A stretch of 64,000 nt of DNA from assembly GCA_035528375.1 (NCBI GenBank), contig DATKYS010000132.1, positions 731 through 64,730 on the forward strand, read 5' to 3'. Both the position numbers and the translations under genes were made by a program. Origin of the DNA: a bacterium (GTDB lineage Bacteria; RBG-13-66-14). Below, piece by piece: positions 39,340-60,793 of this stretch. The notes below the pieces were generated by a model, which saw only the letters and a program-made list of their open reading frames with translations, was not told where the DNA came from and did no database searches. Numbering within the stretch: the stretch's first letter is position 1; each line of letters opens with the position of its first letter.

Positions 39340-39665
39340 GCTGCCGCGTGTCCCCTCCCCCCGTTGGGGGGAGGGCTAGGGTGAGGGGTGGAAAGCGGCG
39401 GGGATAGGAATCCCCGCCCTACATTTAAGGAAAGCTCGTAGGAGCCGACGGGCCAGGGTGAGGGTCGGGGTAGGGAATGTGGAAACGGCGGCCCGCGACC
39501 TCCCTCTCCCTCCGGGAGAGGGATTGAGGGTGAGGGCCACTATTGATAAAAGACGGCGTGGACTAAAGTCCCCGCCCTACATTAAGGAAGCGCAACGCCC
39601 TCGTAGGGGCCGACCTTTAGGTCGGCCCGCGGGCGGGTGTGGACACCCGCCCCTACTGCGGAGGT
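39340..39665. repeat. Cluster of short dispersed/palindromic repeat modules (GGGTGAGGG..., (T)CCCCGCCCTACATT(T)AAGGAA x2, GTAGGGGCCGACCTTTAGGTCGGCCC, GGGCGGGTGTGGACACCCGCCC)
   Basis: Internal duplication within the region. The last two modules recur together at 48483..48600, downstream of groEL. Confidence 0.6.
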
Positions 39666-39715: not shown

Positions 39716-39791
39716 TGGTGGAGATGAGCGGGCTCGAACCGCCGGCCTCAGCCTTGCGAAGGCTGCGCTCTCCCAGCTGAGCTACATCCCC
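39716..39791 (-). tRNA. tRNA-Ala (anticodon CGC)
   Basis: Reverse complement GGGGATGTAGCTCAGCTGGGAGAGCGCAGCCTTCGCAAGGCTG...CATCTCCACCA. G3:U70 Ala identity pair. Anticodon loop TTCGCAA. Confidence 0.9.
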
Positions 39792-39944
39792 TCAAACCCC
39801 CCATCCCCCCCATCTTGGGGGGGCACAGTCGCGGGGGGAATTTTTCTCGATTCGACAATCACCGCCGCGTGCGGAGCCCGGTTTCCGTTTGAAGCCCCTC
39901 AACCCCCCCATCTTGGGGGGGGCACAGTCGCGGGGGGAATTTTT
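39792..39944. repeat. Two ~50-nt direct repeats (CCCCTCAAaCCCCCC..CCCCCCATCTTGGGGGGGCACAGTCGCGGGGGGAATTTTT) abutting the tRNA-Ala 5' end
   Basis: Copies at 39792..39845 and 39893..39944. Each contains a C7-ATCT-G7 hairpin followed by a T-run. Confidence 0.6.
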
Positions 39945-40066
39945 AAAATTAGCTACAATTGCGTTGCGTACGGAAGGTAAATTTCCCGTTCTCGGCGGCC
40001 CGCAGAGGACTCGTCCTACGGGGCCGCCCTACATTAACAGAAACGGCGGAATTGTAAACATGCGTC

Positions 40067-40230
40067 GCTCGCGGCGTTGACTTTCGAATGGATTAACCGT
40101 TCGTCGCGGAACCGGGGTCCAGCGCCCCGCGCTTCAAGAAAAAATAAGGAACTGAAAAAGGGCTCCACTCGCGGCGTTGACTTTCGAATGGATTAACCGT
40201 TCGTCGCGGCTACGCTGGCGGCTCAGCCGC
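40067..40230 (-). repeat. Tandem pair of the tRNA-3'-flank element (copies B 40067..40133 and A 40161..40230) downstream of tRNA-Ser(GGA)
   Basis: Both end (tRNA sense) in CAACGCCGCGAGTGGAGCC and carry GACGAACGGTTAATCCATTCGAAAGTCAA. Homologous to the elements at 40390..40549 and 59593..59760. Confidence 0.65.
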
Positions 40231-40324
40231 TGGCGGAGAGGGAGGGATTCGAACCCTCGAGGGGAGGATAAGTCCCCTACGCGATTTCCAGTCGCGCCCC
40301 TTCGACCAACTCGGACACCTCTCC
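40231..40324 (-). tRNA. tRNA-Ser (anticodon GGA), type II with long variable arm
   Basis: Reverse complement GGAGAGGTGTCCGAGTTGGTCGAAGGGGCGCGACTGGAAATCGCG...GAGGGTTCGAATCCCTCCCTCTCCGCCA. Confidence 0.9.
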
Positions 40325-40389
40325 GCGTGCCTGGAGTTCGAAGCTGTCAGTGGGGCGTTAGGCTGCATCTTTAATACTTGAATTAATAC

Positions 40390-40640
<251 letters not shown>

Positions 40641-40754
40641 AGCGCGCTCGCGAGTATAACCGAGGGTGTAGAGGCTGTCAAGAAGCGGCTCGGAGGCGCC
40701 TTGCGCTCGACCGAAGCATCGGTTATTCTCGGGTTGCGACCGAGGGGGCCGTGA

Positions 40755-48482: not shown

Positions 48483-48600
48483 AGGGGCCGACCTTTAGGT
48501 CGGCCCGCTCCCCTATCCACGTGGGAGGTCTGCGAGGCACAGGGTCGGGGGTGAGGGCTGCCTCGTTAAAACGGGCGGGTGTGGACACCCGCCCCTACGT
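48483..48600. repeat. Second copy of the repeat modules GTAGGGGCCGACCTTTAGGTCGGCCC, GGGTCGGGGGTGAGGGC and GGGCGGGTGTGGACACCCGCCCCTAC
   Basis: Matches 39455..39660 module by module. Located in the groEL 3' intergenic region. Confidence 0.6.
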
Positions 48601-59426: not shown

Positions 59427-59507
59427 GCCGTTCCTCCGAAGCGGCGGGGCGCGGGTTTGTAAATGCGCGTTAACCCGGCGGGGGATCATACCCCCGCCGT
59501 CCGGTGA

Positions 59508-59592
59508 GCGAGAGTGGCGGAACTGGCATACGCGCTGGATTTAGGTTCCAGTGGCTCCGGCCGTGCGGGTTCAAGTCCCGCCTCTCGCACCA
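59508..59592 (+). tRNA. tRNA-Leu (anticodon TAG), type II
   Basis: GCGAGAGTGGCGGAACTGGCATACGCGCTGGATTTAGGTTCCAG + long variable arm + GCGGGTTCAAGTCCCGCCTCTCGCACCA. Confidence 0.9.
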
Positions 59593-59760
59593 GCATGATG
59601 CTGGACCCTGTTCCGCGGGGAACGGTTTGAGTCATTCGTGAGCAATCGCCGCGAGCGGGGCCTTTTTCTAATCGCCAAGTTTATTTAAACGCATGATGCT
59701 GGACCCTGTTCCGCGGGGAGAGGTTCAGTTTATTCCCACACAATCGCCGCGAGCGGGGCC
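59593..59760 (+). repeat. Tandem pair of the tRNA-3'-flank element (70-nt copies at 59593..59662 and 59691..59760) immediately after tRNA-Leu
   Basis: GCATGATGCTGGACCCTGTTCCGCGGGGA(AC/GA)GGTT...CAATCGCCGCGAGCGGGGCC twice. Homologous in sense orientation to the elements downstream of both tRNA-Ser genes. Confidence 0.7.
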
Positions 59761-59827: not shown

Positions 59828-60793
59828 ATGCCAAAACACATAAACTCCTCCCTCTACACCCGCTTCGCCGGCCTACGCGACTTCCTGTCGCTGAAGCTGA
59901 CCGGCGCGTACCCCCGCCCCATCAACGTCCACGTCGAGATAAACAACACCTGCAATCTCGACTGCGTGATGTGCCCCCGGGACCGGCTTACCCGCCGGTT
60001 GACCCTGATGGACGACGACCTTTTTCGGAGCGTAGTGCGCCAGCTTGCGGGAATGGGGGTTCCATCCGTCAGCCTGTTCCTCTTCGGCGATCCGCTTTGC
60101 CACCCGCGTCTGGACGAGATGGTGGCTTACGCCGCGGAGCACGGCGTGGCCCCCGTCCTCAACACGAACGCGATGGCTCTGACCGAGGAGCGCGGTCGGA
60201 AGCTCCTCGACGCGGGGCTGAAAACCGTCATCTTCTCCGTGGACGGCGTCACGCCGGAAGTCTTTGCGGAAGTCCGCCGGGGGGGCGATTTGGAGCGGGT
60301 GCGGGCCAACATCCTCCGTTTCCTCGAGCTGGCGGCGGAGCGCCGACCGCGGCCGGCCACGGTGGTGCAGTTTGCCGTCTCCAATATCAACGAGCACGAG
60401 GTGGACGCCTTCCGGGCCTTCTGGGAGGGGAAGGTGGATCGGCTCAAATTCACCCGCGTCACCGAGTACGCGGGCATCGAGGGGCTCAAGACCTACGAAT
60501 ACAAAACGCTGGAGCGGCGTCCCTGCCCGGACACCTGGAGCAAGATGGTGATTCTGGCCGACGGCACGGTGACCACCTGCTGCCTGGACCTGAACGGTGA
60601 GCTGGGGATGGGGGACGCCGCCGCGACACCGCTCCGGGACCTCTGGCGCTCCCCCCGCTGGAGAACTCTCCGCCGGGCCCACCGGCGCCTGAATTTCGCC
60701 GAATACCCCGTCTGCGACGCCTGCCCCATGCCGCTTTTATACGCGGCCAACCTGGCGGACCGTTCCGCCGACGAGCTCCCGGAAAGGTCGTAA
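59828..60793 (+). CDS. Radical SAM enzyme with C-terminal SPASM/twitch-type cysteine-rich domain
   Basis: CNLDCVMC (CxxxCxxC) 4Fe-4S/SAM motif. C-terminal CPDTW...TCCLDLNG...CDACP auxiliary-cluster cysteines. Confidence 0.75.
   Translation: MPKHINSSLYTRFAGLRDFLSLKLTGAYPRPINVHVEINNTCNLDCVMCPRDRLTRRLTLMDDDLFRSVVRQLAGMGVPSVSLFLFGDPLCHPRLDEMVAYAAEHGVAPVLNTNAMALTEERGRKLLDAGLKTVIFSVDGVTPEVFAEVRRGGDLERVRANILRFLELAAERRPRPATVVQFAVSNINEHEVDAFRAFWEGKVDRLKFTRVTEYAGIEGLKTYEYKTLERRPCPDTWSKMVILADGTVTTCCLDLNGELGMGDAAATPLRDLWRSPRWRTLRRAHRRLNFAEYPVCDACPMPLLYAANLADRSADELPERS

Follow-up and report, generated by a model that had tools for sequence, protein, structure and literature searches.

The tRNA-Leu(TAG) gene at 59508..59592 on the plus strand (ARAGORN; Rfam tRNA model, 55.9 bits) is one of six tRNA genes in the 64-kb stretch of DNA analyzed here, which we refer to throughout as the window. 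It encodes its own CCA (59590-59592) and is followed at once by a pair of direct repeats, placed by a repeat search at 59593-59662 and 59691-59760, 98 nt start-to-start. An earlier note on this DNA had described two 70-nt copies separated by 28 nt, and both statements agree with the search; the near-identity of the copies likewise stands, albeit at 83% rather than the ~85% given there. The repeats were also said to begin at the first base after the CCA. This is right for the repeat of copy 1, but the unit proper, which we call an F unit, begins 3 nt further upstream, given that the tRNA's own CCA is part of its first hairpin, P1 (59590-59604, CCAGCAT-G-ATGCTGG).

The first unit, Leu-1, spans 59590..59662 on the plus strand and is recovered by the repeat search, by a composite motif and by a sequence profile (E = 2.6e-16). 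From P1 it continues through the linker ACCCTG into a core at 59611-59657 that reads TTCCGCGGGGAACGGTT...CGCCGCGAGCG, and ends in GGGGCC, after which come five T residues at 59663-59667. These open the AT-rich 28-nt inter-unit spacer (59663..59690, plus strand; sequence and repeat search). The second unit, Leu-2 (59691..59760, plus strand; repeat search, profile E = 1.4e-16), has a degenerate P1, of which the GCA/TGC pairs alone are left (59691-59702), and a core at 59709-59755; it carries no copy of the tRNA 3' end, and its ortholog is the last copy in a relative's contig (L008, 349-419). The terminus CGCCGCGAGCGGGGCC, earlier called identical in the tRNA-Leu and tRNA-Ser flanks, is shared by the two Leu copies only, the Ser copies having GGAGCC, TGGAGCC or CGACGC at this place. 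Downstream of the pair by 65 nt lies, as had been proposed, a radical-SAM/SPASM gene (ORF 59828-60793, with Radical_SAM and SPASM domains), the protein of which finds matches on metagenome contigs only. The mini-ORF inside the repeats is indeed fortuitous, its ATG and frame being missing from most copies. On the other side of the tRNA gene, ~10 nt 5' of it, a GC hairpin (GGCGGGGG-ATCATA-CCCCCGCC, 59476-59497) is kept at four related loci (L053, L076, L134 and L056) despite divergence of the remainder of the leader.

The claimed homology to the flanks of the two tRNA-Ser genes is borne out. The composite motif CCGCG-N26-32-GCCGCGWG occurs six times in the window, twice each behind tRNA-Leu, tRNA-Ser(CGA) and tRNA-Ser(GGA), against 0.43 expected and with none of 100 shuffles reaching six, so that the similarity is not one of GC-rich low complexity; the profile recovers these flanks at E = 2e-9 to 2e-18. 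All four Ser units lie on the minus strand and were found by motif and profile. Directly after tRNA-Ser(CGA) (40550-40640) is a unit at 40474..40549 (E = 1.7e-18), whose P1, CCAGCGC-GGG-GCGCTGG, starts after the tRNA's CCA. The second unit behind this gene (40388..40449, E = 1.4e-10) has lost P1, and CACCGCCAGCG just before it resembles the tRNA-Ser 3' end. After tRNA-Ser(GGA) (40231-40324), the adjoining unit (40161..40230, E = 2.1e-9) has GCGGC-TGA-GCCGC in place of the usual first hairpin and five T residues behind it; a further unit lies at 40062..40133 (E = 1.7e-15). All copies in the 64-kb window flank tRNAs, while motif and profile find no F copy downstream of the window's tRNA-Phe, tRNA-Thr or tRNA-Ala.

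The last of these genes is instead preceded by an inverted relative of the element. What we call an R unit lies at 39792..39885 on the minus strand (profile E = 6e-23) and ends at the 5' end of tRNA-Ala(CGC) (39716-39791); a second, partial one is found at 39893..39950 (minus strand, E = 3.3e-13). An R unit is ~100 nt long and consists of the F core in inverted orientation (~73% identical), a C7-AAGAT-G7 hairpin and G-runs that continue up to the tRNA 5' end. The hairpin side thus faces the tRNA in F and R units alike. Besides the two units before tRNA-Ala in the window, three to four stand before tRNA-Glu in the Lys-Glu spacers of relatives (L128 2655-2956; L034 5230-5690; L129 865-1266; L108 167-438). 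The G-runs of R units (GGGGGGGATGGGGGGGTTGAG) could form G-quadruplexes. Another repeat also resides in these spacers, a separate family of REP-like palindromes with a 5' GTAG (GTAGGGGCGGG-loop-CCCGCCC), often in the middle of an F...R spacer; examples are found in the window at ~39630-39665, 48588-48598 and ~40010-40040, all on the minus strand, and in relatives at L128 2622-2650 and L125 ~2130-2220.

Beyond the window, a profile search (nhmmer, with a profile built from relatives' copies) collected ~55 F units. Those near tRNAs are all downstream and on the same strand, behind tRNA-Leu(TAG), tRNA-Ser(CGA), tRNA-Ser(GGA), tRNA-Lys(TTT) and tRNA-Tyr(GTA), with the first unit of an array 0-3 nt from the tRNA end. 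There is one exception, a unit in L125 that immediately follows the stop codon of a protein-coding gene. An array consists of one to at least six units of ~75 nt, spaced at a period of ~100 nt, and even close relatives vary in how many they have. The loci compared are 8-kb stretches around pattern matches. The first pattern, applied to species-representative genomes, was too permissive, with at least ~110 chance matches in GC-rich genomes beside at least ~10 real loci of Coatesbacteria type, and the census in those genomes is therefore incomplete; the real genome matches among those listed all lie in MAGs, including RBG_13_66_14 and CSMAG_1439 of Candidatus Coatesbacteria. A tighter pattern added 12 further real loci in metagenomes and had no match in viral contigs. 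Among the matches listed, the F family was met only in Candidatus Coatesbacteria-like genomes and in metagenome contigs.

The tRNA-Leu/radical-SAM locus is syntenic in four of these relatives, and here the copy number behind tRNA-Leu ranges widely. The window has two copies, L056 (Coatesbacteria RBG_13_66_14) and L134 have three each, and L053, the most distant, has one strong copy and weaker ones. At least six are present in the MAG SRP214966_co4_317, whose neighbor proteins are 87-91% identical to those of the window and in which the locus is split over L076 and L008, contigs broken within the array. Contigs of MAGs end inside F arrays at several places (L076, contig end 3117; L008, contig start; L043/L108; L051), so that copy numbers in MAGs are lower bounds, the repeats breaking short-read assemblies at tRNA loci. 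In L130, two F units (88-259) are followed directly by gcpE (ispG; 727-1782) with the radical-SAM/SPASM gene of the window absent, which indicates that this gene is not tied to the F element. The picture of a single non-coding tRNA-3'-flank element, duplicated in tandem, thus survives comparison with all four related genomes; what the earlier note did not have are the CCA-containing hairpin, the inverted R units before tRNA-Ala and the restriction to one lineage. The F units are a new, lineage-specific family of tRNA-trailer/spacer repeats of Coatesbacteria.

Each F unit opens with P1, a GC hairpin of 15-17 nt whose 5' strand begins with CCA and which lies at or beside the CCA of the tRNA. In some loci, such as tRNA-Leu of the window, the two CCAs are one and the same; elsewhere P1 comes after the tRNA's own, giving CCACCA or even CCACCACCA, so that P1 varies in its geometry with respect to the tRNA end. 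Five stems occur (CCAGCGC/GCGCTGG, CCAACGC/GCGTTGG, CCAGCGT/ACGCTGG, CCAGCAT/ATGCTGG and CCAGCTT/AAGCTGG), and in some Ser and Tyr units an unrelated hairpin, GCGGCT/AGCCGC, occupies the P1 site. Across 27 aligned copies, 93.7% of cells are paired, as opposed to 20-52% with a slid partner; in two of the pairs both partners have changed, and the covariation score is attained by 0 of 500 shuffles. The two 15-nt classes of stem contribute additional compensatory changes, and imperfect stems carry their G.T wobbles on the tRNA-sense strand. These compensatory changes and sense-strand wobbles argue that P1 is selected as a folded single strand.

The linker that follows reads ACCGCNG or ACCCCKG, and covariation links the base in its middle to the final one of the P1 loop (CG in 15 copies, GC in 10, other combinations in 2; 0 of 500 shuffles). 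This covariation could reflect an alternative hairpin, P1', with CUGGAC in its loop, or equally two linked subfamilies. Every unit has a pair of conserved GGA motifs at a distance of 17 nt, and P1' would expose one of them in its loop. The core of ~47 nt follows the scheme TTCCGCGGGGAGAGGTT-N6-ATTC-N5-GCAAC-CGCCGCGAGCG and is 79-87% identical across genomes whose neighbor proteins are 66-91% identical; this apparent conservation is inflated, most copies having been gathered by sequence patterns, but 13 copies that match neither search pattern retain the same conserved blocks. The tail is variable, with ~40% of units ending in GCC(G)TTTT.

The check for compensatory base changes suggested in the earlier note thus comes out positively for P1 and negatively for the remainder of the unit. 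The core shows no compensatory change (RNAalifold, -3.8 kcal/mol, 0 covarying pairs), helix P2 has no covariation support, and a scan of column pairs over the units returns the P1 pairs and one loop-flank pair and nothing else, which leaves P1 as the one part with proof of RNA structure. Several other structures were considered and set aside. Single-sequence folds of whole units are no better than those of shuffles (z = -1.7 to +1.2); a long-range pairing between 5' linker and 3' tail shifts register between copies and has no covariation; and no tRNA-like fold, HDV-like or other ribozyme layout fits by inspection or is matched in Rfam. The GGAGAGG of the core is complementary to the 3' acceptor strand of tRNA-Ser and tRNA-Leu, but it is invariant across tRNAs, and we take the match to be a coincidence. 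Nor does the core fit a promoter of sigma-70, sigma-54 or ECF type, by inspection or by scan.

The arrays themselves bear traces of how they arose. In Lys arrays, 14-26 nt of the tRNA-Lys 3' end, from T-loop to CCA, stand before each further unit, and in Tyr and Ser arrays 6-7 nt of the tRNA 3' end are repeated. Such copies before the later units fit tandem duplication of a segment comprising tRNA 3' end and trailer, with unequal recombination as a later step. Behind different tRNAs the same unit subtypes recur (loop GGG with ACCCC; loop AGC with ACCGC), which implies exchange between tRNA loci. At some tRNA/F junctions the CCA is reiterated, as in CACCA-CCA-CCAGC, CACCA-CCAG-CCAGC and GCCACCA-CCAGC (L137 ~205-225, L126 ~250-265 and L132 7085-7095); a cut after the wrong CCA of the precursor would leave a tRNA ending in CCACCA.

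Upstream of tRNA-Ser(CGA), a scan finds a near-perfect promoter of sigma-70 type, TTGACA-17-TATACT, at 40653..40681 on the minus strand. None was found by the scan for tRNA-Ser(GGA) or tRNA-Ala, so that this is the sole one for the Ser-Ser-Ala cluster, which suggests a single operon of ~950 nt that is mainly repeat spacer and in which F and R units would be transcribed spacers. In relatives, tRNA-Tyr has a promoter of its own (TTGATT-18-TATAAT), and none was found for the tRNA-Gly that lies behind an F array; for this gene to be expressed, the array must be read through. Judged from this arrangement of promoters and genes, the F arrays are most likely transcribed spacers that are read through and then removed, and the module after the tRNAs is probably a transcribed tRNA-trailer element.

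How, then, might such an element act? The reading that we favor, and to which we give about an even chance, is that F units work in the transcript, P1 serving as a structural cap and the core as a binding platform. The units would be co-transcribed with the tRNA as part of its precursor, in which a folded P1 would sit at the tRNA 3' end, providing 3' processing with a barrier or a landmark and keeping the trailer from disturbing the folding of the tRNA. The core would offer a sequence-specific platform to a protein or to another RNA, and excised units may persist as small RNAs, like the RtT RNA of Escherichia coli. Arrays would grow and shrink via tandem duplication and unequal recombination, with unit types swapped between tRNA loci. 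We count against this model the L125 unit that follows a protein gene and the variable geometry of P1 at the tRNA end. A stronger version, in which the units are excised as discrete ~75-nt RNAs that make up a new class of tRNA-linked functional RNA, with the R units part of the same system, strikes us as distinctly unlikely. Such an RNA might be a multi-copy sponge or binding platform by way of its two GGA motifs, a switchable P1/P1' element controlling tRNA 3'-end maturation, or an RNA that itself directs cleavage at the CCA.

Of the competing accounts, one makes the core a duplex-DNA site for a putative nucleoid-associated, insulator, roadblock or topology protein, with arrays of such sites bordering strongly transcribed tRNA genes and any RNA a by-product. 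We regard this as a real if fairly unlikely possibility. It would explain why the core is conserved in sequence without covariation, and its conserved blocks (CCGCG, GGTT, ATTC, CAAC and GCCGCG) recur about every 10 bp, although this periodicity rests on judgement by eye. The core moreover occurs in both orientations, its hairpin-proximal end always towards the tRNA, F behind the 3' end and R before the 5' end; recognition at the level of DNA fits better here, since a factor binding RNA sequence-specifically would not read the inverted core before tRNA-Ala or tRNA-Glu. Pairing of F with R as a selected processing stem in the RNA was considered and rejected. Long hairpins are indeed predicted for whole spacers containing both (z = -4.0 and -7.9), but the positions that depart from Watson-Crick pairing are divided between 76 G.U and 71 A.C, and this balance leaves no RNA-level signature, which speaks for a duplex-DNA site. 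On the other hand, the compensatory changes of P1, together with the very different sequences tolerated there, speak for a folded single strand, the orientation of F units relative to transcription is strict, and the account comes without a candidate protein. A second account, which we hold to be about as improbable as the DNA site, sees in the units a selfish repeat of REP/BIME or MITE type, spread by transposition or gene conversion, preferring CCA or tRNA ends and having no dedicated host function. The units are multi-copy, each with a hairpin and a quasi-palindromic core; direct and inverted arrays both occur; a single orthologous locus holds anywhere from 2 to at least 6 copies; different tRNAs are followed by the same subtypes; junctions may repeat the CCA, as in CACCA-CCA-CCAGC; one copy follows a protein gene; and classical GTAG-type REP-like palindromes share the spacers. 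Against this must be set that each relative examined has the element at the same tRNAs, occupancy thus being stable rather than scattered, and that the core is still conserved where neighbor proteins are 66-77% identical. There are, besides, no target-site duplications or terminal inverted repeats within units, no transposase was seen linked to units at any of the loci, and viral contigs contain no match.

Two more conventional readings fare worse. That the F units might be intrinsic (Rho-independent) terminators of tRNA transcription units, as the earlier note had proposed for Leu-1 in a double role, is prompted by the T5 after Leu-1 and after the first tRNA-Ser(GGA) unit, by the predicted folds of these two units, which end in a stem beside the T-run, and by the ~40% of units that end in GCC(G)TTTT; we nevertheless consider it very unlikely. 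No U-tract accompanies P1, the first copies at orthologous loci lack the T-run, and on the sense strand a consensus scan detects no terminator in any unit of the window, Leu-1 included. The genuine terminators after tRNA-Ala and tRNA-Thr differ in appearance. The genes for tRNA-Ser(GGA), tRNA-Ala and the relatives' tRNA-Gly lie behind arrays without promoters of their own; these downstream genes need read-through, and F units are therefore not canonical terminators. Scarcely credible, finally, is the view that integrative elements targeting tRNA 3' ends left the units behind as scars or att sites, or that their small ORFs encode precursor peptides for the radical-SAM/SPASM enzyme; both readings are already contradicted by the data. 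The copies of the tRNA 3' end in Lys arrays, from T-loop to CCA, do recur as att repeats would, but they are only ~100 nt apart, with one F unit between them and neither integrase nor cargo, and five different tRNAs, at conserved loci, are followed by the same element; in the contig of the Leu locus (L001), gene calling yields no integrase. The peptide reading draws on the radical-SAM/SPASM gene 65 nt downstream of the Leu pair, but the ORF, MMLDPVPRGTV, has 11 codons, its start and frame do not extend to most copies, and such a neighbor is absent at most arrays.

If F units function as RNAs or as sites for protein binding, as in the transcript model or in the DNA-site account, they point to a hitherto unrecognized step in how tRNA operons are expressed or processed in this lineage and would constitute a new non-coding element for RNA family databases. 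Were they merely selfish, they would still be a useful genome marker for Coatesbacteria and a reason why assemblies break at tRNA loci. In searches of the window and its relatives with Rfam 15, only tRNAs reach the gathering score, and relaxed searches over F and R arrays return matches at chance level only, with no RtT among them. Two sub-threshold or misleading matches were discarded. That to sX4, a small RNA of Xanthomonas (40506-40655, minus strand; 39.4 bits, below the gathering score of 70), is due to the tRNA portion, the sX4 model being essentially a tRNA-Ser with a 3' extension; and the match to Plastid-psbl-rps4 is tRNA-Ser itself.

Among short bacterial repeats, REP/BIME elements are the obvious comparison. 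They are, like F units, short, GC-rich, hairpin-forming intergenic repeats at the 3' ends of genes, modular, clustered and present in both orientations; they are also transcribed, as F units appear to be. An F unit, however, lacks the 5' GTAG, its P1 starting with CCAGC and GTAG occurring inside one stem variant only; its hairpin measures 15-17 nt, as opposed to 20-40 nt for a REP palindrome, and a long conserved core that is not palindromic comes behind it; and F arrays are direct tandems linked almost exclusively to tRNAs. The hallmarks of MITEs, terminal inverted repeats and target-site duplications, are missing around F units, which are direct repeats. Intrinsic terminators placed after the CCA, such as those of tRNA-Thr and tRNA-Ala in the window, resemble the F unit in having a GC-rich hairpin immediately behind the CCA, but P1 has no U-tract and the F arrays must be read through. 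The 3'ETS-leuZ of E. coli, a tRNA 3' external transcribed spacer, reportedly becomes an RNA sponge once released from its precursor; it is a single short spacer rather than a repeat family, and the F element has no known pairing partner. In the archaeon Methanopyrus kandleri, a palindrome lies ~10 bp downstream of about half of the tRNA genes, and its discoverers speculate that it guides 3' maturation (PMC5217627). Here, too, a lineage-specific conserved palindrome sits just behind tRNA genes, but it is an archaeal motif of 18 nt (CGTTA-N9-TAACG), with no long core and no tandem arrays.

The closest parallel is with tyrT. To our knowledge, very few cases of tandem repeat modules at tRNA 3' ends are known, and the tyrT/RtT repeats, which are processed to a small RNA, are the classic one. 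In E. coli K-12, the tyrT-tyrV region contains three 178-bp tandem repeats, 95% identical, the last of which overlaps the 3' end of tyrV by 19 nt. This repeat region has been described as the small RNA RttR, co-transcribed and processed (bioRxiv 10.1101/2024.07.17.603846). In both systems, tandem repeats run from the tRNA 3' end and overlap or copy that end. The F units have no similarity to the tyrT repeats in sequence or in Rfam, however, and the two are to be seen as analogous rather than homologous; the F unit is ~75 nt with a ~100-nt period, compared with 178 nt, and its family is found with five or more tRNAs, is mirrored by an inverted form in tRNA leaders and contains no tpr-like ORF. 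The F family is thus an unrelated and much more widespread version of such tRNA-end repeats, found in an uncultured candidate phylum and extending there over five tRNAs or more.
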